Source of the DNA: Nitrososphaerota archaeon
GTDB lineage: Archaea > Thermoproteota > Nitrososphaeria_A > Caldarchaeales > Calditenuaceae
Reading direction: 5' to 3'
Assembly (NCBI GenBank): GCA_041641295.1
Contig: JBEPYO010000001.1
Coordinates: forward strand, 1,152,001 to 1,216,000
DNA length: 64,000 nucleotides
The position numbers and the translations under genes are program-made. Each line of letters starts with the position of its first letter. Positions within the stretch are counted from its first letter, which is position 1. This document shows, piece by piece, positions 2,191 through 57,512 of this stretch. The notes beneath the pieces are model-generated. The model did not search any database. It saw nothing but the letters and a program-made list of their open reading frames with translations, and had not been told where the DNA came from.

Positions 2191-3397
2191 GTGAAGATTC
2201 TACACGTTCTTCCCTTTTTTTGAGCCGGCAGGAGGACCTGCAACTCATGTCTACTATCTTTCTAGAGGGTTGGCCGGAGAAGGGATAGAGTGCGTGGTCT
2301 GTGCTCGTGAGGTGGAGGGGCTGGTGGATAGTGGTGATATATGCTCTATTACGAGGGTTATAAGGTTGAAGGAGATAAACAAGCTGATTCGATGTGCACC
2401 CCCAATCAAGGAACCGGATACTCGTGAATTTGATGAAATACTAGGCAATCTATCCTACCAATTGAAAAAGATCGTTGAGAAAGAGAAAATCGACATAATC
2501 CACAGCCACGATATTAGGACAAGCCTAGTGTTGGAAAGGGTTAAGGAGGAGGTGGGGACTCCCTTCGTTGCCACCGGGCATAATACCGTAGCACCAGCGA
2601 ACATTCTCTCACAGCTCTATAGGGGAGAGGCAGTCTACAGCTATCTTGCGATGCTCTCATCGTTCCTTAAGCGGGAGAAGTATGACAAACTCATATGCGT
2701 CAGCAATTTTTCCTACGAGATGTACACCCGCTTTGGAGCCCCAAGAAGCAAAACTGTAGTGATATACAATGGCATAGACGTGGAGGAATTTAATCCATAC
2801 ATTGACGGATCTACTGTTAGGTCTAAACTAGGTGTCAGTGCAGAGACGTGCCTGATATTCACTCCAGCGCGGATTGAGTATAGGAAGGGTTTTGACACTA
2901 TTTTCGAGGCACTCCATAGACTTGCAAGCAAGGGCTATGATTTTAAACTCCTAATCTCGCCTCGTCTAGGGAGCTCGTATCATCGTCAAGCTGAGGGCGA
3001 GTTGGTAGGCCTTGCTAAAAGGCTAGGCCTTATGGACTACATAACGTCTGCCACATTTAATCAGAGGTCTATGCCGGAGGCATATGCCGCCTCAGATATT
3101 GTCTGCCTCATGGGTTATGAGAATTTTGGATACGCGGTGGCGGAAGGGATGGCTATGGGGAGGCCGGTAATAGGTGCAAAGTGGTCCGCTCTACCAGAGC
3201 TTATAGAGCATGGTAGCAACGGGTTCCTAGTTGAGCCCGGCGACCCAGACCAGCTAGCCTACTATCTCTCATTACTACTTAGGGATAGGGTGTTGAGGGA
3301 GCGGATGGGTAGCGTCGGGAGAAGGATCGCTCTAGAAAGGTTCAACCTAGCCGACAATATCAGGAGACACGTGGAGCTCTATGAAAGCCTGTTATAG
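2191..3397 (+). pseudogene. Glycosyltransferase family 4 (GT-B) with a +1 frameshift in a T7 run after codon 10
   Basis: GTG 2191 reads MKILHVLPFF then TGA (2221). The +1 frame continues EPAGGPATHVYYLSRGLAGEG into ORF 2270..3397, which has DIIHSH, IYNGID, RIEYRKG and ENFGYAVAEGMAMGRPVI GT4 motifs. Confidence 0.8.
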
Positions 3398-3468
3398 ACC
3401 TTGCGGGGTTGCTGAGCCATCCTTTGGGAGGTTTTTCACCGAGGTGGGGAAAATTTTAAATCTAAAAA

Positions 3469-4773
3469 ATGTGCCGGAGTGTGAAGAGGCTCTTGCCGAA
3501 AAACGGTTATGAACATCCTTCCACCGGTCTACACACGATTAGAATTTTACTCAGAGGAAATTTTCTAGTTATGCTTATTGGGTATTGTATCGCTGTGCCA
3601 CTAATCGGGACAACTATAGCGTATCTCCCGTTATATCTTGATGGGTTAGGAGCCACCCCGCTCGTCATAGGGCTCGCTATCGGTTTCCCAGAGTTTATCG
3701 CCTTGATACTCCGGATACCGGGGGGATACATAGGCGACGCCTACGGAAGGAAGTTTTTAACCGTTCGGATGAACTTCGTGCTGGGCCTCGTAGGAGTACT
3801 TATTGCGTTTGCACCGAGCTGGGAGGTGCTACTTCTTCTACTGGTGGTCAGGGCGATGGCTGGGTTCTATATGCCAGCCGAATATGCCCTGCTGGCTGAC
3901 TCGATACCTGAGAGGCTCAGGTCGAGTGGGTATGGATTATTCTGGACCATTGTCGGGGCCGTCGGTCTAGGCGGGCCTATACTGGGCGGCCTATTGTATG
4001 AGTCCATGGGGCTTAATGGTCTGAGAATAGGCTGGCTGATATTCGGCTCGGCCGACATGATAAAAGCAGTTTACTATCAATTCTTCTTGAGGGAAACGCT
4101 TCCAGGCCAGCCATCCAGGACAAGTGTCTGGCACATAATAGCAACAAGCTACAGGGACGCGGGACCTAGACTAGTCTCAATCCTGAGGAACAGGTCTCTA
4201 TCGGTCGTCATGGCACTTGGCATGCTTGGGATCACCATAAACGCCCTATCATCAACCTACCTCATATTATACTTCACAAGGGTCCTAGGATTCTCAGCAC
4301 TCCTATGGGGGTCAATAATCTCTGCGGCTAGAGGCATCACCCTCTTCTTACAGGCCCCTGTTGGGATACTCTCAGACAGGTTTGGGCGGCGGGCCATATT
4401 GTCTACCTCCATCGCGGCCTCTGGGGTCTCCCTAATACTACTCGGCCTCCCCTCCCTCCCCATAGAGGTTGTATCGCTCCTCACACTCACAATCTTCACC
4501 ACAAGTCTAGTACAAGGAATCCCCAAGCCTATACTTGATGCAGCACTCATAGATTGGACTCCAGAGGCCGAAAGAGCTAGGCTGATAGGCATAATACTGA
4601 CTATCTGGGGAGTTACAGCATTCCCCAGTAACTTGGTCTGGGGCTATGCGTACGGATTCTCACCACCACTAGTCTTTCAAATAGGAGGCATAGTATCTCT
4701 CGGCATACTCCCTCTACTTCTGGCAAGGTTTCAGGAGGCTAGAGTACGCTCATCTACTATGGCTATAGGGTGA
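3469..4773 (+). CDS. Major facilitator superfamily transporter (true start may be further downstream)
   Basis: About 12 hydrophobic segments; MFS motif A in both halves (GYIGDAYGRK, GILSDRFGRR). Confidence 0.9.
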   Translation: MCRSVKRLLPKNGYEHPSTGLHTIRILLRGNFLVMLIGYCIAVPLIGTTIAYLPLYLDGLGATPLVIGLAIGFPEFIALILRIPGGYIGDAYGRKFLTVRMNFVLGLVGVLIAFAPSWEVLLLLLVVRAMAGFYMPAEYALLADSIPERLRSSGYGLFWTIVGAVGLGGPILGGLLYESMGLNGLRIGWLIFGSADMIKAVYYQFFLRETLPGQPSRTSVWHIIATSYRDAGPRLVSILRNRSLSVVMALGMLGITINALSSTYLILYFTRVLGFSALLWGSIISAARGITLFLQAPVGILSDRFGRRAILSTSIAASGVSLILLGLPSLPIEVVSLLTLTIFTTSLVQGIPKPILDAALIDWTPEAERARLIGIILTIWGVTAFPSNLVWGYAYGFSPPLVFQIGGIVSLGILPLLLARFQEARVRSSTMAIG

Positions 4774-11132: not shown

Positions 11133-12185
11133 ATGAACACTCAAAGAAGACTAACACCAGAGGAGAAGGCTATACTCTTAGAGGCCCTGAAAATTGGAGT
11201 GGAGAAGGGCTATGGATACCACCGGGTTTGGAAGATGTTGAAGAGAAATATGGTGGAGGTGTCGAGGAGCATCGTAAGGTCCTGGTATTATAGGATTTTT
11301 CCGGAAAGGGTTAGAAGAAGGGGCGAATGCCTTCCAAGATAGCTAAGGATAAAGCTGTACGAGGAAGTCCTGAGGCTGAGGAGGCAAGGCCTAGGATATA
11401 AGAGAATTAAGAAGAGGATCAAAGAAATGTATGGAGTCACTCTTAGTCCCGCGGTGATTGCTGATTGGTGTCGCGGAGTTCACACACCGTTCGGCGGAAT
11501 ACGGATCCCTACAATAGACTTCCTAGACCCATCACCAGAGCTAGCATATGTCATAGGAGTTGTTGTTGGAGATGGGTGGGCCGTCAAAAGAAGTGGAAGA
11601 AGCGGAGAGTATAGGATCAGCGCTAAGGTTAAGGACCGAGACTTCGCGGAAGAGTTTTCGAGGTGTTTGGGGAAGGTTCTCGGAAGAGAGCCGCCGAAGC
11701 CAATACCAATGAAGGATGAGAAATATAGGGTGCGTGTCAATTCAAATGCACTGTATAAACTATTACAAAAACCCATAAACATAGACAAGATAAGACTATT
11801 CGTAGAGCACACCAGAGACTGTACACGGAGTTTTCTGAGAGGGTTCTTCGACGCTGAGGGCTCGGTAACACTCGACGGCGACATTTACTGCTACAATACG
11901 GATCATAGGCTTCTCGAATATACGCGAAGACTCTTAGGCCTTTTAGGGATAAAAACCACAGATCCAAAGATAAGAACAAAGAAGGGTACTCTAATTAAGG
12001 ATTGGAAGACAGGAAAGACGTACATAAAGAAAAAAGACGTTTACTATCTCTATGTTAGGGCAGACACTAAGCTTAATTTCTACAAACATGTAGGATTCAC
12101 AATACAAAGAAAAAGGCAACGTCTCGAAGAATGTCTAAAGCGACGTGGACTACTAAATGTACCACTTAACCAGTCCTCCTCCTAA
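11133..12185 (+). pseudogene. Free-standing HTH + two-motif LAGLIDADG homing endonuclease, interrupted by an in-frame TAG at 11340..11342
   Basis: ORFs 11133..11342 and 11427..12185 share a frame. Read-through gives ..CLPR*LRIKLYEEVLRLRRQGLGYKRIKK..MYGV. LAGLIDADG helices LAYVIGVVVGDG and FLRGFFDAEG; C-terminal FYKHVGFTIQRKRQRL. Confidence 0.85.
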
Positions 12186-12608: not shown

Positions 12609-14045
12609 CTATGTGTTTATTACAGGGACTTTACACGATCCAGTGATTATGGCTTTTAGTCTGTTCCAGTTTTCGGGTATGAGTGAGAGGTAGATGTGGG
12701 CGAAGAAGACTCCGGTGAATAGGTAGAAGATGAGTAGGTGTAGGGCCCTGACGTTGAGTCCTCCGCCGAGGAGTGTGAATACCCATGGGAAAAGGTTTGG
12801 ATAAGCCATGGCAAAGCCTGTAAGTCCGAAAATTACTAGGGCTATGAAGTAGAACCATACCAGGGGCTTCTGTAGTGAACAATATTTCCTGTACATGTAG
12901 TATGTTTTGGTTTTGGCGTCGTATACCGCGTGTGGTGGATATTCTTTTGTTAATCCTAGAAAGTTTTTGACAATAGTAAGTGTTACATAGATGTCGTCTC
13001 TAGTGAGCAGTAATAGCTGTCTCCACTCACCCTTTCTGATCATGGAGTAGGTGTGAAGGGGGATGTCAGCTATCAGGATTGCAAAAGCGGACCATATGTG
13101 TATGTCTCTGCTTTGCCCGCCGAAGAGGGGTAGTTTGAACAGCATGCTTAACCCTGTTATAGTCATAACGGTTAATACAGCGACCCTTATCCAGTGCGCT
13201 ATCCTGGCTTCCCTGATATGTCTTTCGAGAAGGACTGTCTCACTGTGGTGGGGTTTTTTCCAAGCCCTCCTCCTTACCAGATGGGCTAAAACACCTGCCA
13301 CTGCCACGTACCAGGCATAAGGCCCGTATTCTGAAACTGCTCCATAGAAGTCAAAAACCGCTTCAGCCTTTCCTACAAATTCTTCTCGGACGAGAACTAT
13401 GACGTATGAGGCCATATCGGTTGCGCGGTGCTCTATTCCTTTACCAAACTGGCCTATAGCAAAGCCTATGCCTACAGGCCTTTCAAGCGCTAGCTCCAGC
13501 ATATTTCTTGCATCAATGGCGAGTGGCCTAGCTCCCTCAACCACGCAGCGCCCGTCACTGCACTCCATCTTTGCAATCACGTTGCTTACGAGACCCAGCT
13601 CTTCGTATAGTATCGGTTTTGCGGGTCCTGGTAGGATGGCTTCCTTGGCATGGTTGTCCCCATAGGATGGGCTGACGAGTATAGCGTAATCGGGGGCCTC
13701 CTCACTACCCATATGTGCTTGGTCTCCGTCAGGGTCAAACTCTAAGCCAAAATAGTCGCGCGGAGTTGGGCTAGGGCTCTCGAAGATGGCTAAGAAGTAT
13801 AGGTGTTGGTCATCGTGTTTGAAGGCGATGCTGGCTTTTGTAACAGATTCTCTGAAGAGCGGTACGTCATCCCATTCACCCTCCGAGATAATACCGTCTA
13901 TGACCGGTGTTTTCTTGGCGGTGTATGCCCTGATCACTACTGCTTGTTGAGCAAAAGTGATGTTAATAACTAAAAGAAGTGCAAGGACTAGAATTATTGG
14001 AAAAAATAATAGATGTTGGTGTTTGGGGAGGTTTTTTATGTCCAT
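12609..14045 (-). CDS. Fusion of an exported DOMON/CBM9-like (ethylbenzene dehydrogenase gamma-like) heme domain to a Ni/Fe-hydrogenase-type diheme cytochrome b
   Basis: Signal peptide; TPVIDGIISEGEW, FKHDDQHLYF, DYFGLEFD, AHMG, VEGARPL (DOMON-like). C-terminal TM helices carry four His (RIAHW, DIHIW, ALHLL, FAHIY) and YCSLQK (cf. YNPLQK). Confidence 0.75.
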   Translation of the reverse strand: MDIKNLPKHQHLLFFPIILVLALLLVINITFAQQAVVIRAYTAKKTPVIDGIISEGEWDDVPLFRESVTKASIAFKHDDQHLYFLAIFESPSPTPRDYFGLEFDPDGDQAHMGSEEAPDYAILVSPSYGDNHAKEAILPGPAKPILYEELGLVSNVIAKMECSDGRCVVEGARPLAIDARNMLELALERPVGIGFAIGQFGKGIEHRATDMASYVIVLVREEFVGKAEAVFDFYGAVSEYGPYAWYVAVAGVLAHLVRRRAWKKPHHSETVLLERHIREARIAHWIRVAVLTVMTITGLSMLFKLPLFGGQSRDIHIWSAFAILIADIPLHTYSMIRKGEWRQLLLLTRDDIYVTLTIVKNFLGLTKEYPPHAVYDAKTKTYYMYRKYCSLQKPLVWFYFIALVIFGLTGFAMAYPNLFPWVFTLLGGGLNVRALHLLIFYLFTGVFFAHIYLSLIPENWNRLKAIITGSCKVPVINT

Positions 14046-15532
14046 GGCTGCTCTCTTGCCGCGTTTCTACCGGCGACCCTGCCGAAGAAGATGGCCTCGC
14101 CTAGATGGGATATGAGTCCTTCTGCTACGACGTCTCCTGCCGCGTAAAGCCTCGGGATTGGTTTGCCATTGACATTGATTACGCGCGACTCGGCGTCAGC
14201 CAAAAGACCACCGTTGGTCTCAGATATGCTGGGCACAAGCTCGACCGCATAGAACGGCGGTGTCTGAATCGGCGAAAACGTGAACTCGGGTGTGTCTACT
14301 CTACCAAAGTCGGGATCCTTCTTGTCTGTCCTAGCCCATTCATTCCATGATTCTACTGTCTTCAAAAAGTTTGCCTTGTTAACTTTTATCGCTTCAGCCA
14401 ATGCCTCAAGCGAGTCAGCCCTTATCACGATGCCCTGGGAGATCTCTTTTGAAAGGTCCTCAGAGAAAGCGGTGCTTATCCCTTTTCCCGTGCTTTTCTT
14501 CACCTGTTCGCTGTCTGTGATGAGCCACGCGTGGCTACCGGGCTGGTAGAATATCTCCTCATTTAATATGTCGAAGTGGGCTCCCTCGTTGACAAATCTA
14601 TATCCTTTTTCGTTGACGAAGATTGCTGATATTCCTCTATACCTGTATCTTGAGTTGATCTTTGCTATGGCGGGGAATCCGCTGATGTGGTATGTGTTTA
14701 TTATCGCGGCTCCTAGGGCTTGGGCCATTAATAGGCCGTCGCCTGTACTTACAGCCGAGGTTATTGGGACTGCGTGATATCCTACTGGGCTGAGGTGTTT
14801 AAGCAGGTCTTTGTTCGCGGAGAAACTGCCTGTTGTTAGTATCACTGCTTTACGGGCCTTGACGAAGACTCTACTCCCATTACGCTCCCCAACAACGCCC
14901 ATAACCATGGTTGTATCTGGACGTGCAACCAACTGTACAACCTTCAACTCTGTCTCAACCCTTACTCCCTTCTCCTTCGCGGCTTTCTGTAGTGCTGAAA
15001 CAAGTGCTGAGCCTCCTCCCTTAGTCCTTAACGACGTAGGTGTTACCGAGTCGTACTCCACCCCTAGCGTGGGAAGCCAGTCTCCAACCTCTACTCCCAC
15101 ATTCTCGACATATTTCATGTCCCTGTCTGGGAAAGGTGGTTCCCAATGAGTCGCCCGCATCAACCCCTGCACTCCTTTATACCATTGGGCGGGGTCGGTC
15201 TGCATGTTTTTCTCCTTTTGGATGGATGAGTTGATAACACCTAGGTTTCCGCCAGACATTACGCCGTTGCCTCCTGGCGTCGAAGACTTATCAATTACAA
15301 TAACGGATGCACCATTAGTGGCAGCCTCTATGGCTGCGGCCGAGCCGGCGACCCCAAAGCCAACTACAACCACGTCAGATTCTAGATCCCATCTCTCAGG
15401 AGGCCTCCAGTAGACGGGTTGTACCTGCTGAAAAACTGCCCAAGACCCTCCTACAGCGGCACCGCCTACAACAACGCCCGCGGCTAGACCTTGGAGAAAC
15501 GACCTCCTGCTAAAAACGGGTTTCTGGGACAT
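14036..15532 (-). CDS. Tat-exported FAD-binding oxidoreductase, flavocytochrome c/fumarate reductase flavoprotein superfamily (FAD_binding_2); substrate unknown
   Basis: SRRSFLQG twin-Arg plus hydrophobic helix; DVVVVGFGVAG, TGDGLLMAQALGA, RFVNE, TNGGL, IPRLYAAGD, FFGRVAG. Start ATG 15532 (or GTG 15550). Confidence 0.88.
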   Translation of the reverse strand: MSQKPVFSRRSFLQGLAAGVVVGGAAVGGSWAVFQQVQPVYWRPPERWDLESDVVVVGFGVAGSAAAIEAATNGASVIVIDKSSTPGGNGVMSGGNLGVINSSIQKEKNMQTDPAQWYKGVQGLMRATHWEPPFPDRDMKYVENVGVEVGDWLPTLGVEYDSVTPTSLRTKGGGSALVSALQKAAKEKGVRVETELKVVQLVARPDTTMVMGVVGERNGSRVFVKARKAVILTTGSFSANKDLLKHLSPVGYHAVPITSAVSTGDGLLMAQALGAAIINTYHISGFPAIAKINSRYRYRGISAIFVNEKGYRFVNEGAHFDILNEEIFYQPGSHAWLITDSEQVKKSTGKGISTAFSEDLSKEISQGIVIRADSLEALAEAIKVNKANFLKTVESWNEWARTDKKDPDFGRVDTPEFTFSPIQTPPFYAVELVPSISETNGGLLADAESRVINVNGKPIPRLYAAGDVVAEGLISHLGEAIFFGRVAGRNAAREQPWT

Positions 15533-15569
15533 TTTCCGCGTATATTCCACTCAGGCCTAAGATTTTAAC

Positions 15570-23502: not shown

Positions 23503-23593
23503 ATAAGTAAGCCTAGCTAGGTCTGGATTCTCAGGGAACATGGCGCCCTTATGCGCTGGAACTAATTTATGGGGAAGCCCACTTAATATAATC

Positions 23594-23609
23594 TCATAAA
23601 ATTGTATGA
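23594..23609. promoter_or_regulatory. Near-perfect 16-bp palindrome TCATAAAATTGTATGA, candidate operator of the heme-copper operon
   Basis: 7 of 8 pairs complementary; lies immediately downstream of a TATA-like TTAATATAA. Confidence 0.45.
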
Positions 23610-23694
23610 ATCATTATGTAGAAATTCCTAACAATTTGACAACTAGAGTTCGCGCATAGATTCTTTGCTCGTTTCGCTGATTAGCCATCTGGCG

Positions 23695-24267
23695 ATGTAT
23701 CCGCAATTTGTTATAGAGGTCATCTATTTTGGGATCATATCCGTGATCGTGGCGTTTATCGTAGCGTTTTATATTCTGACACAGAGAGGAGGGCGCGAAG
23801 TTGAGGCTGACGGTGGGCATGAGGGGAGGGCCGGTATGGAGAAAGGTGAGAGGAACTGGATGCTCTTCCTATTCTCCGTGGCGTTGATTGGCAATATATT
23901 GTTCCTCTCGCCAATTCTCCCCTCTGCTCGCAACGCATTGTACGAACCTAAGCCAGCCACCACCATAACAATATACGTGAAAAACTATAGTTTTCAACTC
24001 CCCGAGACTCCAATAATAATCCCAGCGAACACCCCCGTAGAGTTTGTTGTGATATCTGAAGACTTGGTCTATGGATTCGGGATCTTCAGGAAGGATGGCT
24101 CGATGGTCTTCCAGATGCAGGTGGTCCCAAAGCCGTATGTCAACAGGATTGTCTGGGTCTTCGAGGAGCCTGGGGCCTACGATATACGGTCGACCGAGTA
24201 TAGTGGGCCTCAACACCCGTGGATGTTTGTCCCGGATGCTATAATTGTGGAGGGTGGTAAGTCATGA
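23695..24267 (+). CDS. Heme-copper oxidoreductase subunit II (cupredoxin fold) lacking the CuA ligands
   Basis: Two TM helices, then IPANTPVEFVVISEDLVYGF, QMQVVP, FEEPGAYDIRSTEYSGPQHPWM. The CxExCxxxHxxM motif has both Cys replaced by Ser, and the DVxH His is Tyr. Confidence 0.88.
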   Translation: MYPQFVIEVIYFGIISVIVAFIVAFYILTQRGGREVEADGGHEGRAGMEKGERNWMLFLFSVALIGNILFLSPILPSARNALYEPKPATTITIYVKNYSFQLPETPIIIPANTPVEFVVISEDLVYGFGIFRKDGSMVFQMQVVPKPYVNRIVWVFEEPGAYDIRSTEYSGPQHPWMFVPDAIIVEGGKS

Positions 24268-25847
24268 ATGAGGATGAGCGAAAGATACTTGCATTAAGGT
24301 TTGTCGTAGTGGCGTTGATTTTCTTCGCTCTTGCTGGAATTGAAGGGATATTGATGAGGCTCAGAATTCTAAATCTCCTCACAGACCTCTTTGATGAGCG
24401 GCATTTCTACTCCATGATGACTGCCCACCCATTCGTGGGCATCTATGGCTGGGCCTACATGGCGGTAATGGGTGCATTTTACTTCTTAGTCCCCTACGTG
24501 TTGAAGAGAGATATCTATAGCAAGCGAGCCTCCTATGCGAGTTTCTGGCTTATGATCTCTGGGCTCGCCATTATATGGACCACTACATTTGTAACCCACT
24601 ACGCTCCCCTCTACACCCTCTACTGGCCTATACCAGTCGCGGTGGAGTTGGCTGGCTGGAATCCGGCGGCAATATTCTCTTTCGGAGTGGGTGTGGCACT
24701 AGTTTTAGCAGCTGTACTGGTGTTCTTCTTCAACATGTTCGCGACAATTTTTCTCCCCGCTAGGGTTGAGATGAATGGGGGTGAAAAGGTAGGTGCTGGC
24801 TATGTTTTCAAGGAGCTCATGCTCACGGCATTCAACCTCGATAAACTCTGGGCCAAGGTGAGGGGTATCCCACATTACACAGCAAGAGTATTCAACTATC
24901 CGGTCTTCGTAGTCTCGGTGTTTAGGGGTTGCGTCGACACTACTCTAAACGCACTCGTGATAGGCGGTGTTGGAGTGCTCTTAGCCCTTTTCGGTGCCGC
25001 CCACCTGTTTTCAGGCTCCTCCCTGAGCTACTCCCTGATCGACCCGCTAGTCTACAAGAATGTCTTCTGGTGGGGCCTAGACTTAATTGCAGACGGTAAT
25101 GTCCTCATATTCACAGCCGGGACCTGGTATCTCCTCGTACCGCTGCTTCTGAATAGACAGCTATACGGCGAATCAGTTGTAAGGACTGTCATTCTTGCGG
25201 ACCTAGTTGTATCGCTGTTCGTCTGGAATCATCACATGCTGGCAGATACGCCACAGCCCCTTGTCCTACAGATCCAAGGCCAGATCTTTACTTGGGGAGA
25301 ATTGATAACTATGGGGCTTACAATGTTCGCGGTACTAGCTACTATCTGGAGGGCTAGGCCGGTCAAGTACTCTGCCCCGCTGAAATTCGTCCTAGTTTCT
25401 ATAACTGGGTATGCTATAGGTGGTTTGGCGGGGATAATACAGGCAAACTATGCCTCGAACCGCTTCTTCCACAATACCCAGTGGGTAATCGGGATTCATG
25501 GTCATATTCAACTTCTCGTTGGGCTTTCGTTGACGATTTTCGCGGCAATTTATGCCCTGTTCCCACTCCTCACCGGGAAAGCCCTCAACGAGAAGCTTGC
25601 AGATGCCCACTTACTATTGATGGGTGTTGGCGGGGTTGTGATGGGTCTTGCTATGGGGTTGGCGGGTACACAAGGCATGCTGAGGAGAACCCTCTACCCG
25701 ATGGGCCTCGGAATATATGAGCCATACATGGGTGTAGCGCTTATTGGGGCTTTGATGATGGCAGCCGGGTTCGCCGTATTCATAATTAACGTCGTCAGAA
25801 CAGTTGGACTAGGCTCGCTGGTGAAACTCTTTCTACCCCAAAAATAA
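24264..25847 (+). CDS. Heme-copper oxidoreductase subunit I, B-family-derived, gNOR-like putative nitric oxide reductase
   Basis: About 12 TM helices; MTAHP (low-spin heme His), LYTLYWP, WNHH (metal ligands), HNTQWVIGIHGH (HxH), GMLRRT; helix VI reads IADGNVL instead of GHPxVY. Confidence 0.82.
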   Translation: MNEDERKILALRFVVVALIFFALAGIEGILMRLRILNLLTDLFDERHFYSMMTAHPFVGIYGWAYMAVMGAFYFLVPYVLKRDIYSKRASYASFWLMISGLAIIWTTTFVTHYAPLYTLYWPIPVAVELAGWNPAAIFSFGVGVALVLAAVLVFFFNMFATIFLPARVEMNGGEKVGAGYVFKELMLTAFNLDKLWAKVRGIPHYTARVFNYPVFVVSVFRGCVDTTLNALVIGGVGVLLALFGAAHLFSGSSLSYSLIDPLVYKNVFWWGLDLIADGNVLIFTAGTWYLLVPLLLNRQLYGESVVRTVILADLVVSLFVWNHHMLADTPQPLVLQIQGQIFTWGELITMGLTMFAVLATIWRARPVKYSAPLKFVLVSITGYAIGGLAGIIQANYASNRFFHNTQWVIGIHGHIQLLVGLSLTIFAAIYALFPLLTGKALNEKLADAHLLLMGVGGVVMGLAMGLAGTQGMLRRTLYPMGLGIYEPYMGVALIGALMMAAGFAVFIINVVRTVGLGSLVKLFLPQK

Positions 25848-53360: not shown

Positions 53361-53638
53361 CTCAAGAGGGGCTAGTACCTCTTGGAGAGATTTTCAGAAT
53401 ATTACGGGGGAGCGTCCTCTTAAAGGGTAATGTTATGCCGCGCCTAGGTGAGACAGTCTGCACTACCGACGGTAAGGCTATCGGCTATGTCTCAGATATC
53501 TTCGGCAAGATTAGCGGCTTCTATATCCTAGTGAGGCTGACTAGCGAGAAGCTAGAACTAAAGATAGGTGAGAAGCTCTATCTTCAGGGCAAGACAGGCC
53601 TTGCCGGCTCTTCAGAGAAGGCTAAGCCACAGTTGTGA
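53345..53638 (+). CDS. gar1: H/ACA RNP protein Gar1
   Basis: PRLGETV..GKAIGYVSDIFG; conserved position after srp19. Confidence 0.78.
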   Translation: MGEALTQEGLVPLGEIFRILRGSVLLKGNVMPRLGETVCTTDGKAIGYVSDIFGKISGFYILVRLTSEKLELKIGEKLYLQGKTGLAGSSEKAKPQL

Positions 53639-54065
53639 TTTTTCTAAGATTATTAACAAGCTCCTTTACCTTAGACTTTGCCACGTCCTGAATAATCCTT
53701 GCACCAATGCTTGCTGCAGCACCACCCACAGTAACATCCGACACCCACTTCACTTCGGAGAGCCTATCTCCTTTGTCGACGATGTCTAGGTCTATTTTCA
53801 AATCGATTGTCGACTGCATGCCCGATCCTTTCCCAACAAGAGTTACATGGTTCGGCTCTCTCAAATCAACGTATGTGAAGTCCATCTTTATGGTGCCGCT
53901 TAACACCCCGAGCCTCACCTTAAACTCGGCCTCAAAGTCCCGGTCGGATTTGACCTCTAGTTTTTTTAGATCGGGGATTGCCTTGCTAATTTGTTTCGGG
54001 TTTGTTACCAGCTGCCAAACTTTCTGAGGTGGGAGAGGTGTCTCAAAAGACCCTTCTAGCCTCAT
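53622..54065 (-). CDS. coxG: Carbon monoxide dehydrogenase accessory protein CoxG (SRPBCC)
   Basis: VWQLVTNP..IP, VGG.AASIGARII; adjacent to coxD/coxE. Confidence 0.85.
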   Translation of the reverse strand: MRLEGSFETPLPPQKVWQLVTNPKQISKAIPDLKKLEVKSDRDFEAEFKVRLGVLSGTIKMDFTYVDLREPNHVTLVGKGSGMQSTIDLKIDLDIVDKGDRLSEVKWVSDVTVGGAAASIGARIIQDVAKSKVKELVNNLRKITTVA

Positions 54066-54173
54066 CGAGCCTTATTGTGCCTACCCCCTAAATAAATCTA
54101 CCGAGAATATAAGATGAGGGCAAAGTTTTATTAAGTCAGTTTACGCGGGTGAATTGGATGGTGTATCAATAGG

Positions 54174-55088
54174 TTGTCTAGAGCCGATCTTCTTGAGGGC
54201 CTAACAATAGATACTCTGATTGAGAAGCTTGAGAAGCACCTTTACGTTGCAGATAGAAGCCTAGCTACCGCGCTCTATCTCGCAATTAAGATGAACAAAC
54301 CCCTTCTGATCGAGGGTGAGCCTGGATGTGGGAAGACTGAGATTGCGAAGGTTCTTGCAGAGGTTCTTCAAACCGACCTAATTCGGCTGCAATGCTACGA
54401 GGGCCTAGACGCCTCCGACGCTATATATGAATGGAACTATCCCAAGCAGCTCCTCTACATCAGGCTACTGGAGAATAAGGGTGATTTGAGGGATGTTGAG
54501 TCGGAGCTCTTTAGCGAGAAGTTCCTTCTTAAAAGGCCGCTCTTGGCAGCCGTGATGCATGAAGGCGAGATTCCGCCGGTTCTTCTGATAGATGAGATCG
54601 ATAGGGCTGATGAGGAGTTTGAAGGATTCCTCCTCGAATTCTTGGCGGAGTTTCAGGTTACCATACCTGAGATAGGGACAATCAAGTGTAAGAAGCAGCC
54701 CATAGTGATACTTACCTCGAATAGGACTAGGGAGATTGGGGACGGTTTGAAGAGGCGCTGCCTCTACTATTACCAGTCTTATCCGAGTAGGGAAAAGGAG
54801 TTGAAGATACTGAAGCTAAAGGTAAAGGGGCTGGACGAGTCTGTCATGGCTAAGATTGTTGATTTCGTGAATGTGGTTAGACAGAGGCCCGAGATTGCGA
54901 AGAAGCCGGGAATCTCCGAGTCCCTAGACTGGGCAAACGCTCTGGCTAGGCTGTCGGCGAGGGATCTAAACAGGGAAACTGTAATGGCTACACTCTCGTG
55001 CATAATTAAGACCCAAGAAGACTTAATGAGAATAGATATCGACTCGATCCTCTCCATGATCGGTAGCATGGGGGGTAAAAGCGGATAA
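54174..55088 (+). CDS. coxD: MoxR-type AAA+ ATPase, CoxD family
   Basis: EGEPGCGKT, RLQCYEGLD, YEWNY, LLIDEIDRADEEFE, LTSN, LKRRC. Confidence 0.92.
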   Translation: MSRADLLEGLTIDTLIEKLEKHLYVADRSLATALYLAIKMNKPLLIEGEPGCGKTEIAKVLAEVLQTDLIRLQCYEGLDASDAIYEWNYPKQLLYIRLLENKGDLRDVESELFSEKFLLKRPLLAAVMHEGEIPPVLLIDEIDRADEEFEGFLLEFLAEFQVTIPEIGTIKCKKQPIVILTSNRTREIGDGLKRRCLYYYQSYPSREKELKILKLKVKGLDESVMAKIVDFVNVVRQRPEIAKKPGISESLDWANALARLSARDLNRETVMATLSCIIKTQEDLMRIDIDSILSMIGSMGGKSG

Positions 55089-55090
55089 AG

Positions 55091-56251
55091 ATGCATCTCT
55101 ACGATTTCGTCTGCGGACTGGCGAGAAGCTTAAGGAGACAAGGTCTAAAGGTTGGCATCTCAGAGTCCATTGACGCGTGCCAAGCCATAGGCCTCGTGAT
55201 TGATCGGGGCTTCGAGGACATCCTGACCGCGATACGTGTTACAATGGTGAAGGACCCCTCGAAATATCACCTGATCGAGCAGGCTCTCGAGGAGGTTGCC
55301 ACTGGAGGAGGTGGAACGGGGGAGGGAGAGTCCGGTGAACAGGGTGGCGAGGGCTCTGAGTATGCTATGCAGCCGATGGGCATGTCGAGAGGCTCGGGGC
55401 AGGACCAGAATAGCGCCTCGACCCAGTTCGTAATGTATAGTCCTGCTGAGTCACTGCACAGGAGGAGCCTAAGGCCAATAGATATCCACGCCCTGAAGAC
55501 CGGTAAACGAATAATCAAGAGGATGCGTCGACGGCTAGCCGTTCTTCCGGGCAGGCGCTCAACCGCCTCAAAGAAGGGTGATATAGCGTTTGCGAAGACT
55601 ATCAGGCACAGTTTTAGAACTTTTGGAGAGATAATGGAGTTGAGAAAATCAACCAAGATTCTATCCCGCGCGAGGCTGGTAGCTCTTATCGATATCAGCG
55701 GCTCGATGGACACGTATACTGACTGGCTCGTCAGGGCCATGTACCTATTCAGCAGGTTTACGCGGCGCGTAGAGGTGTTCGTTTTTAGTACACGGTTGAG
55801 GCGTATAACTGATCTTCTCGCGATAACAGACTTCGACGAGATAAGGAGGAGACTATCGAGCGAGATAGACCTTTGGGGGAGTGGTACACGTATAGGCTAC
55901 AGCCTGAAAATCTTCTTAGACAATTATGGCAATATGCTAAACAGGAGCTGGATCGCGGTTATAGTGAGTGATGGCTGGGATACGGGTGAGCCCGAATTGC
56001 TGAAGTTTAGTATGAGTAATCTAAGGCAGAGGGTGGGGAGAATTATATGGCTGAACCCGCACACGGATAAGCCAAACTTCAGGCCCCTCACAATCGGCAT
56101 GATGACTGCCCTACCCTACATTGACGTTCTAGCGGGAATGAGCGTGCTCGAAGACTATAGCTCATTTCTGAGGTTCTTCGGAAAGTCAATTAAACCGTTG
56201 AAGCGTGGTGAAAGCCTTGTCAGACGCCAGCCCGAGAGATTGGCGCTATAG
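55091..56251 (+). CDS. coxE: VWA domain protein, CoxE family
   Basis: DISGSM, FVFSTRL, WGSGTRIG, SDGWDTG, WLNP. Confidence 0.9.
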   Translation: MHLYDFVCGLARSLRRQGLKVGISESIDACQAIGLVIDRGFEDILTAIRVTMVKDPSKYHLIEQALEEVATGGGGTGEGESGEQGGEGSEYAMQPMGMSRGSGQDQNSASTQFVMYSPAESLHRRSLRPIDIHALKTGKRIIKRMRRRLAVLPGRRSTASKKGDIAFAKTIRHSFRTFGEIMELRKSTKILSRARLVALIDISGSMDTYTDWLVRAMYLFSRFTRRVEVFVFSTRLRRITDLLAITDFDEIRRRLSSEIDLWGSGTRIGYSLKIFLDNYGNMLNRSWIAVIVSDGWDTGEPELLKFSMSNLRQRVGRIIWLNPHTDKPNFRPLTIGMMTALPYIDVLAGMSVLEDYSSFLRFFGKSIKPLKRGESLVRRQPERLAL

Positions 56252-57512
56252 GCGGATATCAAAGTTTAGAGAGGTTGAAGAAGTCCTAGCAGAGACCACA
56301 CGCCGCATATCTGTAAAACTAGGCACAGTTAACTTGATGCCACGGTATACAGTAGGCCGTGTATTGGCAGAAGATGTTTTTGCGCCGATCGATCTGCCTC
56401 CTTTCCACATGTCTCATGTGGATGGGTTCGCAGCCCGGAGCTCAGACCTGACTGGTGCTTCGGAGGAGGCGCCTGTAGGGCTTATTGTTGAGGGACATAT
56501 TGGGCCCGGAGAGCATGGGGGACGTATAGGGCCAGGCAGAACGTACAGAATTCACACTGGAGGGTATCTCCCCGAAGGCGCTGACACGGTTGTCCCTCAG
56601 GAGGATGTTTTCACCGATGGCTCAATGATCTATGTCTCTCGCCCATATCGTCCATTTGAGAATGTAGTCCCGGCTGGGAGTGACGTACGTCGCGGCCAAC
56701 TATTAGCCAGGAAAGGAGATGTTTTATCAGCTGCTAAGGCCTCGCTGTTTGAGACGCTCAGGGTATACGAGGTTAGTGTTCGCGAGGCTCCGCGGGTCAC
56801 TATACTCTCTTTCGGGGACGAGCTTACCGATAATCCCGCCGAGGCGGAGAGTGGGAAAAAGATTCTGAATACACACGCGGTACTGGTTTCCCAGATGGTC
56901 AGGGCCCTAGGCTGCGAGCTTGTGGGAAACGACATTGTTCCAGATAGGTCGGAGGCTATAGGTGCAGCAATAGATCAGGGCTTAAAAAATTCTCACTGCG
57001 TCTTAACGATAGGCGGGTCCAGTGTAGGGGACATTGACTTGGTTGGCGCTGAGCTGGGTAAACGAGCGGAGTTTTTCATACAGGGGCTTAAGCTACAGCC
57101 AGGAAGAGTTGGTGGGGTAGCGTTGATAGGTGGCAAGCCCCTAATAATGCTTCCAGGACTCATACACTCTACGGTCAATGTCTTTAACTATCTTGCAGCG
57201 CCAGTGTTGCTGCATATGCTTGAAGCGAACTTGGAGCAATTTGTCATAAAGGTTGACGCCTATTTGGCTGAGACCGTAGAGTTTCAGCGCTGGATTGACT
57301 TCAAGAGGATTGTCTGGGTCACTCTGAAGCGGCGGGATGGTGAAGGGCATGAGGCACACCCCAACGTCGCCGACGCCTCCAATATCTCGTCAATCACCTA
57401 TTCCCATGGATTCATAGAGGTGCCGCCCAATAAGTCCGTCATAGCTAAGGGGGAAAGGGTGGTGGTTAGGATTCCACTCTGGATTACGCGAAGTATCAAA
57501 GAACCTGATTAA
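56205..57512 (+). CDS. moeA: Molybdopterin molybdenumtransferase MoeA
   Basis: GRVLAEDV, PPF..S.VDGFA, TGG.LPEGADTVVPQE, GDEL, GGSSVG, PG, LPG. Confidence 0.9.
   Translation: MVKALSDASPRDWRYRRISKFREVEEVLAETTRRISVKLGTVNLMPRYTVGRVLAEDVFAPIDLPPFHMSHVDGFAARSSDLTGASEEAPVGLIVEGHIGPGEHGGRIGPGRTYRIHTGGYLPEGADTVVPQEDVFTDGSMIYVSRPYRPFENVVPAGSDVRRGQLLARKGDVLSAAKASLFETLRVYEVSVREAPRVTILSFGDELTDNPAEAESGKKILNTHAVLVSQMVRALGCELVGNDIVPDRSEAIGAAIDQGLKNSHCVLTIGGSSVGDIDLVGAELGKRAEFFIQGLKLQPGRVGGVALIGGKPLIMLPGLIHSTVNVFNYLAAPVLLHMLEANLEQFVIKVDAYLAETVEFQRWIDFKRIVWVTLKRRDGEGHEAHPNVADASNISSITYSHGFIEVPPNKSVIAKGERVVVRIPLWITRSIKEPD

Follow-up and report, generated by a model that had tools for sequence, protein, structure and literature searches.

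In a 64,000-nucleotide stretch of contig JBEPYO010000001.1 (assembly GCA_041641295.1, positions 1,152,001 to 1,216,000; hereafter the window) from a Nitrososphaerota archaeon of the Caldarchaeales, two adjoining genes encode subunits II and I of a heme-copper oxidoreductase (HCO). Our reading, to which we give a probability of about 0.65, is that they encode a gNOR-family HCO with a His/Asp non-heme metal site, likely a quinol-fed nitric oxide (NO) reductase, serving a nitrite to NO to N2O route in which the nitrite reductase NirK supplies the NO. The presence of gNOR in the genus of this genome is already published; the finding is correct and is not a discovery, since Murali et al. 2024 (PMC11214002) already made and tabulated the inference. 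The sequence features, homology and conservation of the operon and the gene content of its genome are reported below as observed.

Placement in the gNOR family

Sequence comparison supports the assignment of the operon to the gNOR family of Murali et al. A preliminary description of this DNA, made from the letters alone, had named the same family, and the call agrees both with the published hallmarks and with full-length homology to the labelled gNOR protein OGC04573.1. In the passages of PMC11214002 that deal with it, gNOR is the one HCO family in which an active-site His is replaced by Asp and the Tyr cofactor is lacking; its subunit II is a cupredoxin without the CuA residues, possibly quinol-oxidising. 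The same passages report it from Bacteria and Archaea, mostly in sulfidic settings, describe it as not characterised biochemically, and base the case for NO reduction on modelled sites and on a bioinorganic mimic. For the family, PMC8756737 cites Sievert et al. 2008 and Hemp & Gennis 2008.

Word-indexed searching gave 2,461 relatives among the 8,000 candidates scored. The nearest relatives listed were Nitrososphaerota, Aigarchaeota and Caldarchaeales bins (75–95% identity), followed by Terriglobales and Methylomirabilota (66–70%) and then by Methanomethylicia and Actinobacteria (near 50%), and a scan of species-representative genomes gave at least 556 loci encoding such relatives. Subunit I was 93% identical to the protein of 'Archaeon HR02, isolate HRbin02' (locus L008) and belonged to the same 90% cluster as GBC70555.1 of Aigarchaeota HR02. 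Identity to the protein of a WOR-1 bin (L087) was 43% over residues 4–524; an exact look-up identified the latter as OGC04573.1, and OGC10325.1 lies in its 90% cluster. Dataset S4 of PMC11214002 labels six leaves of its tree as gNOR, and both proteins are among them.

A tree of 74 rows was built from the 70 of 80 loci with a subunit I open reading frame (ORF) of at least 480 amino acids, the window's protein, OGC10325.1 and two outgroups. The 72 gNOR-like rows were on one side of a branch (99, with asterisk) from the genome's own A-family and nNOR-like enzymes, and subunit I nested in a Caldarchaeales clade next to Bathyarchaeia and Geothermarchaeota. Of the broad HCO placement that the preliminary description had called for, the common side with OGC04573.1 and OGC10325.1 was obtained; the outgroups were only the two own enzymes, both on very long branches, with B, eNOR, sNOR, bNOR and C-family sequences outside the tree. 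When B-family sequences were sought in 251 Thermoproteota genomes with the nNOR-like query, only nNOR-like relatives and one distant match were returned.

Dataset S6 of PMC11214002 gives GNOR in 7 of the 24 Caldarchaeales rows found, genus HRBIN02 included, and Dataset S8 scores three HRBIN02 genomes with gNOR=1, nNOR 0–2, nirK=1 and nosZ 0–1; the gNOR sheet of the latter holds 14 archaeal genomes in 160 rows (own count). The earlier statement that the family is reported mainly from bacteria understates this record, as the passages of PMC11214002 name both domains and its datasets list the window's genus.

Public records name the protein a cbb3-type cytochrome c oxidase or a quinol oxidase, which is the kind of mislabelling that had been expected of automated annotation. 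Three other identities were considered and rejected. A cbb3-type (C-family) enzyme disagrees with Ser317 at the helix VII Tyr position, with the lack of CxxCH, with the cupredoxin partner and with the TIGR00780 score (78 against 583). A ba3-type B-family O2 reductase disagrees with Asp273, Asp277 and the Tyr/Ser/Ser set of subunit II at the aligned positions, and cNOR or qNOR with the presence of two His only, the lack of a heme c motif and a length of 527 residues without N-terminal extension.

Ligands, conservation and fold of subunit I

The motifs of both subunits quoted in the preliminary description were all found in place, and five of the six canonical His are kept, as it had claimed: His55, His323, His324, His412 (codon at nt 25497) and His414 (codon at nt 25503) are invariant in 43 of 43 sequences, a set consisting of the query and 42 of the 120 listed relatives at 48–95% identity. 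The low-spin heme would be bound by His55 and His414 and the high-spin heme by His412, the latter facing a non-heme metal that is predicted to be bound by His323, His324 and one or both of the invariant residues Asp273 and Asp277. The other His of subunit I are residues 47, 112, 204, 247, 403 and 449, and none occurs anywhere in helix VI (residues 261–296). Residues 277–281 read D-G-N-V-L, with GAC at 25092. W269, W270, G271, L272, D273, A276, D277, G278, V280 and L281 are invariant in all 43 sequences, as is Ser317 at the C-family Tyr position; the conserved substitutions in helix VI are not due to chance.

Subunit I has one Cys and subunit II has none, so that neither can bind CuA or heme c, and neither gene contains CxxCH. 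Subunit I scored 217 bits with Pfam COX1, and 7 of the 7 NCBIfam oxidase models matching it were far below their curated cut-offs (78 bits against 583 for TIGR00780). In an AlphaFold model of subunit I (pLDDT 83.8, pTM 0.87), helix VI is continuous over residues 261–296. VIA-align gave Z scores of 25–40 to solved subunit I chains of the A, B, C, cNOR and qNOR families alike (36.3 to cNOR 4XYD, 25.0 to qNOR 3AYG), and Foldseek placed A-family and bo3 chains on top. Picking the closest family by structure was given up, since both programs fail to separate the HCO families.

Register of helix VI

With a profile of helices VI–VII searched against the Protein Data Bank (PDB), Thermus ba3 was top-ranked and aligned ungapped from the shared DPL through FWW. 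All five printed alignments paired Asp273 with His233 (top posterior, printed as an asterisk) and Asp277 with Tyr237 (posterior '8'), and 18 of the 25 rows were 562–618-residue chains with the matched stretch of 1EHK. Under this register a spacing W-x3-[H/D]-x3-[Y/E/D] is common to four enzymes, reading W-x3-H-x3-Y in ba3 and the own A-family enzyme, W-x3-H-x3-E in the nNOR-like enzyme and W-x3-D-x3-D in subunit I. Table A4 of PMC8756737 (modified from Hemp & Gennis 2008) gives the gNOR active-site residue as 'D' where O2 reductases have Y and cNOR and qNOR have E, and this entry fits the ba3 register.

Two further registers were obtained. By hhalign of the family profile against the genome's A-family enzyme, Asp277 is opposite His and Leu281 is at the Tyr position, for which a 4-residue insertion inside helix VI is needed; hhalign against the nNOR-like enzyme and MAFFT in three modes placed the His opposite Leu272. 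The CuB His and the Tyr are absent in each of the three registers, and another His or Tyr at the active site, for which the preliminary description had asked a check, was found in none of them.

That description had equated D-G-N-V-L with H-P-x-V-Y, i.e. His replaced by Asp and Tyr by Leu. The loss of both residues stands in every register, and the pairing itself was not confirmed. Judged from the alignments, a change of Tyr to Asp (D-x3-D for H-x3-Y) is more likely than Tyr to Leu, the former mapping was probably off by one helical turn, and the active site is most likely to be read as two His and two Asp. Asp273 and Asp277 would then stand where oxygen reductases have the CuB His and the cross-linked Tyr. 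A site of two His plus carboxylate is of the kind that binds iron and could support the reaction 2 NO + 2 e- + 2 H+ -> N2O + H2O.

The database names imply that the enzyme might work as an oxygen reductase or O2 scavenger despite having no His-Tyr cofactor. The enzyme has the oxidase fold and heme ligands, but in the lack of this cofactor the fourth electron for O2 reduction cannot be delivered. Besides the low scores with the oxidase models, there is no Tyr at either the A/B- or the C-family position, one CuB His is missing, the lack of a cytochrome c subunit means that the enzyme is not cbb3-type, and an intact A-family oxidase, with HPEVY and a CuA site, is already encoded elsewhere in the genome. 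Oxygen reduction is therefore extremely improbable.

Subunit II and electron entry

In subunit II, DLVYGF lies at nt 24061 and STEYSGPQHPWM at nt 24190; the latter is aligned to 'CNQYCGLGHQNM' of ba3. The profile alignment to ba3 gives Tyr126, Ser166 and Ser170, in line with the earlier statement that both CuA Cys and one His are lost. By this alignment, subunit II is a ba3-like cupredoxin with His changed to Tyr and both Cys changed to Ser. The profile was made of 30 sequences chosen from 56, and the CuA Cys positions in its 30 aligned rows are Ser/Ser in 28, Ser/Ala in one (L087) and Cys/Cys in one (L018). Searched against the PDB, its top 10 rows were CuA subunit II or CuA-domain chains, with the matched stretch of ba3 1EHK_B at E ~1e-12; bo3 CyoA was matched at E 2e-5, and Pfam COX2 gave 17 bits on subunit II, below the cut-off. 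The match to the CuA domain of ba3 supports an origin from the B-family, and subunit II would be a ba3-derived cupredoxin that lost three CuA ligands.

Since neither CuA nor heme c is present, quinol would be the natural electron donor. Glu27 of subunit I aligns with residue 74 (Asp) and His47 (29 of 43 sequences) with residue 94 (His) of the aa3-600 menaquinol oxidase chain 6KOC_A, residues which we take to correspond to D75 and H98 of bo3. The quinone site of bo3 is given as D75-R71-H98 in a passage of PMC13022660, and gNOR is said to have conserved quinol-binding residues in PMC11214002. As a quinol site of subunit I, the alignment of Glu27 and His47 is suggestive only.

One locus, L018 from a Thermofilaceae bin (subunit II 1713–2288, subunit I 2295–3827), has a gNOR-type subunit II with the full CuA set H, C, C, H, M, and its subunit I keeps D-x3-D (WWGLD..ADGNVL). 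The metagenome protein P0130, 55% identical to L018 subunit II, carries the same full set, and the two form a pair (97, with asterisk) nested among Tyr/Ser/Ser subunit II sequences. Because of this nesting, the CuA site of the sub-lineage looks like one that was re-created rather than retained. Of the best 33 representatives in the subunit II profile search, one was Cys/Cys, 22 were Ser/Ser or Ser/Ala and 10 were fragments. The L018 contig has a low coverage (2.35x).

Table 1. Features of the gNOR operon and of related loci (positions are those of the window unless a locus is given).
Feature	Position	Strand	Remarks
Upstream leader, possible promoter/regulatory region	23585..23694	+	~110 nt; pairwise DNA alignment with the HRbin02 orthologous locus
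gNOR subunit II gene	23695..24267	+	N-terminal membrane anchor and ba3-like cupredoxin domain without CuA site
Tyr126, at first CuA His position	24070..24072	+	aligned to His of ba3 'DVIHGF'; Tyr in 29/30 subunit II sequences
S-T-E-Y-S-G-P-Q-H-P-W-M	24190..24225	+	Ser166 and Ser170 replace CuA Cys; His174 and Met177 kept; by alignment to ba3
gNOR subunit I gene	24264..25847	+	527 amino acids; 12-helix HCO core
Glu27, candidate quinol-site carboxylate	24342..24344	+	invariant 43/43
His55 (MTAH), predicted helix II axial ligand of low-spin heme	24426..24428	+	aligns with 'TTH' His of aa3-600
Asp273, most likely replaces helix VI CuB His	25080..25082	+	pairs with ba3 His233
Asp277, most likely at cross-link Tyr position (the Asp codon of the preliminary description)	25092..25094	+	pairs with ba3 Tyr237
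His323-His324 (WNHH), predicted helix VII ligands of non-heme metal	25230..25235	+	aligned to HH of ba3 and A-family
His412-Gly-His414 (IHGH), predicted helix X axial ligands of high-spin and low-spin hemes	25497..25505	+	aligned to A-family 'HFH'
nNOR-like HCO of the window's genome, second putative NO reductase	L003:1366-2937	-	H-N-L-M-E in helix VI
nNOR-like subunit II	L003:2864-3418	-	keeps CuA motif CLEFCGDGH
Loci with hemerythrin neighbours of gNOR			L023, L029, L040, L042, L047, L053, L074, L075, L081, L087

Integrity of the operon and gene content of the genome

The stop of the subunit II gene overlaps the start of the subunit I gene as ATGA, and the ATG at 23695 with which subunit II starts is common to its homologues. 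Comparison with the HRbin02 orthologue gave a ratio of nonsynonymous to synonymous substitution (dN/dS) of 0.06 in subunit I and of 0.17 in subunit II. The two genes are an intact, translationally coupled HCO operon under purifying selection. Gene decay is rejected because the frames are intact, the sites are invariant and dN/dS is low, and the earlier argument that coordinated substitutions in intact ORFs speak against decay is thereby sustained.

The genome of the window (1.56 Mb, 5 contigs, 93.8% complete) encodes three HCOs, namely an A-family oxidase, the nNOR-like enzyme and gNOR. The A-family oxidase is an intact I+III fusion with FWFFGHPEVY and has a CuA subunit II. The 251 Thermoproteota sampled include five further Caldarchaeales genomes with relatives of the nNOR-like enzyme (Table 1). 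The check for nirK, nirS, nosZ and nar genes that had been proposed gave a mixed result. A three-domain NirK is present (454 bits to PDB 6HBE) with a SCO1 gene downstream, but NirS, NarG and a full-length NosZ were sought in the genome and none was found; for nosZ, PF18764 matched no control genome and is uninformative, and TIGR04244 and TIGR04246 matched only short cupredoxin stretches. The gene inventory agrees with the entries for the genus in Dataset S8.

Proposed function and alternatives

From these data we infer the identity of the metal, the electron donor, the NO reductase activity and the physiological role. Membrane quinol would be the most likely electron source, perhaps through the Glu27/His47 site, and the three-domain NirK could make NO in this genome, giving a truncated nitrite to NO to N2O route beside the A-family oxidase. 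A short route of this kind beside aerobic respiration is the most economical reading for this genome. For the gNOR family as a whole, we likewise infer NO reduction, quinol feeding and non-heme iron.

Several observations weigh against this reading. The family is termed 'proposed' in PMC11214002, in whose passages on gNOR no member is purified or assayed. The metal ligand may be Asp273, Asp277 or both. The full-length subunit I profile scored higher with A-family chains (111 bits) than with ba3 (70 bits), and descent from the B-family therefore rests on subunit II and helices VI–VII. The Arg position of the bo3-type quinone site is Leu23, so only two of the three quinone residues are matched, and His47 is present in only 29 of the 43 sequences. 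No denitrification genes lie near the operon within the 64-kb window, and with the nNOR-like enzyme as a second candidate NO reductase, gNOR need not be the respiratory one.

Its distribution counts on the same side. Among 76 Caldarchaeales genomes, gNOR was found in 17, the three-domain NirK in 20 and both in 4, all in the window's genus, against about 4.5 expected under independence, in a count of one NirK type (E <= 1e-40) over related genomes, some of them incomplete metagenome-assembled genomes (MAGs). In one Caldarchaeales genus, 7 of 8 genomes carry gNOR and none carries NirK. In the gNOR sheet of Dataset S8, where many rows are incomplete MAGs, nirK or nirS occurs in 49 of 160 rows and, with gNOR as the only NO reductase, in 10 of 90 (own counts). 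This weak co-occurrence means that gNOR is not a fixed part of a nitrite-reducing module, and for much of the family a detoxifying or other role is possible.

Detoxification is a possible alternative with a minor share of the probability. Instead of serving an energy-yielding nitrite respiration, the enzyme would scavenge NO that comes from neighbours or from abiotic nitrite-iron chemistry in hot springs, independent of an own NirK. Consistent with this, 13 of the 17 gNOR-bearing Caldarchaeales genomes are without this NirK, and 80 of the 90 published genomes with gNOR as sole NO reductase are without both nirK and nirS (own count); some Caldarchaeales, of genus JGI-0000106-J15, have no HCO other than gNOR according to Dataset S6 of PMC11214002, and the operon stands alone among housekeeping genes. 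The hemerythrin neighbours of some relatives, which weakly resemble YtfE/DnrN iron-sulfur repair proteins and are all far below the cut-off, also point this way. However, the window's genome and three others of its genus with gNOR do carry NirK, and only the one type was sought, in MAGs that are incomplete. Detoxification and respiration are in any case the same chemistry and do not exclude each other.

It is much less probable that the heme/non-heme-metal site carries out another reaction, e.g. with another small oxidant of sulfidic anoxic habitats, and that the label of NO reductase is wrong. The passages of PMC11214002 give no assayed gNOR; members of the family come most often from Anaerolineae, Bathyarchaeia, Bacteroidales and further anaerobic groups, which for the most part lack nitrite reductases, and the two-Asp site of gNOR is unlike that of any characterised NO reductase (three His and Glu; PMC11214002, Fig. 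1 legend). Yet all HCOs characterised so far reduce O2 or NO according to PMC11214002, the carboxylate at +4 parallels the Glu of cNOR and qNOR and of the H-N-L-M-E here, and gNOR occurs in full denitrifier genomes of Campylobacterota, Aquificota and Methylomirabilis.

A wider proposal, that gNOR is not mainly an enzyme of denitrification but a widespread quinol-linked 2-His/2-Asp enzyme of anaerobes with a substrate or role not set by an own nitrite reductase, and with an electron entry that is evolutionarily switchable because one archaeal sub-lineage re-created the complete CuA ligand set, is rather doubtful.

Surroundings of the operon and neighbours of its relatives

Conservation of the upstream leader with the HRbin02 locus begins near 23585 and reaches the ATG; the 5' end of the leader is A/T-rich, and the sequence before it has diverged. 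The adjoining genes are unrelated and encode an ADP-forming acyl-CoA synthetase, a PAC2 protein and Hsp20. The operon was seen in hot-spring metagenome DNA runs only, and no RNA run was listed with it.

Across 72 gNOR loci, subunit II stands beside subunit I in 57 and is the only widely shared neighbour; of the 15 loci without a scored subunit II, 5 are at contig ends and in 10 another frame was chosen in ORF picking. A conserved third subunit was sought in these loci and, apart from subunit II, no neighbour occurred in more than 14 of 72. Genes for hemerythrin HHE-domain proteins of ~180–200 amino acids, one of them fused to DUF438 and PAS, lie within a few genes of gNOR in 10 of the 72 loci; these loci (Table 1) belong to at least five archaeal and bacterial phyla. 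Other neighbours are Crp/Fnr regulators (9 of 72 loci), a heme-O-synthase-like UbiA (7) and HTH_10 regulators (14 archaeal loci). We count all these neighbours, like the NirK of the genome, on the side of NO reduction.

Elsewhere in the window, a stand-alone LAGLIDADG_3 homing-endonuclease-like ORF of 252 amino acids (11427–12185) lies in a region otherwise poor in long ORFs, and a FAD flavoprotein adjoins a cytochrome b561-like membrane protein (12609–15550). CoxG, an AAA ATPase, a CoxE-like VWA protein and MoeA are encoded in a row at 53622–57512, accessory genes of a kind found with aerobic CO dehydrogenases.

Comparison with known systems

A passage of a 2023 genomic study of Caldarchaeales (PMC10547907) states that no NO reductase was identifiable in NirK-bearing genomes. 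Reading the present genes as gNOR closes the gap in the nitrite to NO to N2O route for the window's genus and points to hot-spring Aigarchaeota as possible sources of N2O. The main value of the assignment lies in annotation and metabolic reconstruction.

Like gNOR, the quinol oxidases bo3 of E. coli and aa3-600 of B. subtilis (6KOC) have a subunit II cupredoxin without CuA. The Asp and His residues of aa3-600 to which Glu27 and His47 are aligned presumably correspond to the quinone site of bo3. Unlike gNOR, both are A-family O2 reductases with His-Tyr and CuB, and the Arg of their quinone site is not conserved here.

With cNOR and qNOR (4XYD, 3AYG) and with the nNOR-like enzyme, the protein shares the HCO fold, a carboxylate four residues past the helix VI metal ligand, and the absence of a Tyr cofactor. 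In NO reductases this carboxylate is Glu (PMC11214002, Fig. 1 legend). Those enzymes differ from gNOR in that none of the three His is lost. The cytochrome c subunit of cNOR and the N-terminal domain fused in qNOR are both lacking here, and the CuA site is still present in subunit II of the genome's nNOR-like enzyme. In PMC11214002, cNOR and qNOR are placed beside the C-family and not the B-family.

Thermus thermophilus ba3 (1EHK, 1XME) is the best PDB match for subunit II and for helices VI–VII of subunit I, and the two enzymes are alike in the framework DPL...FWW...Y..P...HH..AD and in a two-subunit core with a small cupredoxin subunit. They are unlike in that ba3 has His233-Tyr237, CuB and CuA and reduces O2, whereas Asp273, Asp277 and Tyr/Ser/Ser would take the corresponding positions here.

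The closest system is the gNOR family itself. A preprint (bioRxiv 10.1101/592808) mentions gNOR with a His to Glu substitution of a heme ligand; this change was not seen in the 43 aligned sequences, in which all three heme His are invariant. The window's protein has, like the family, Asp for the CuB His, no cross-link Tyr, the five other His and a CuA-less cupredoxin subunit II. It is homologous over its full length to the leaves OGC04573.1 and OGC10325.1, and its genus was already scored gNOR-positive. No feature sets the protein apart from the family, in which it is placed in an archaeal subclade.

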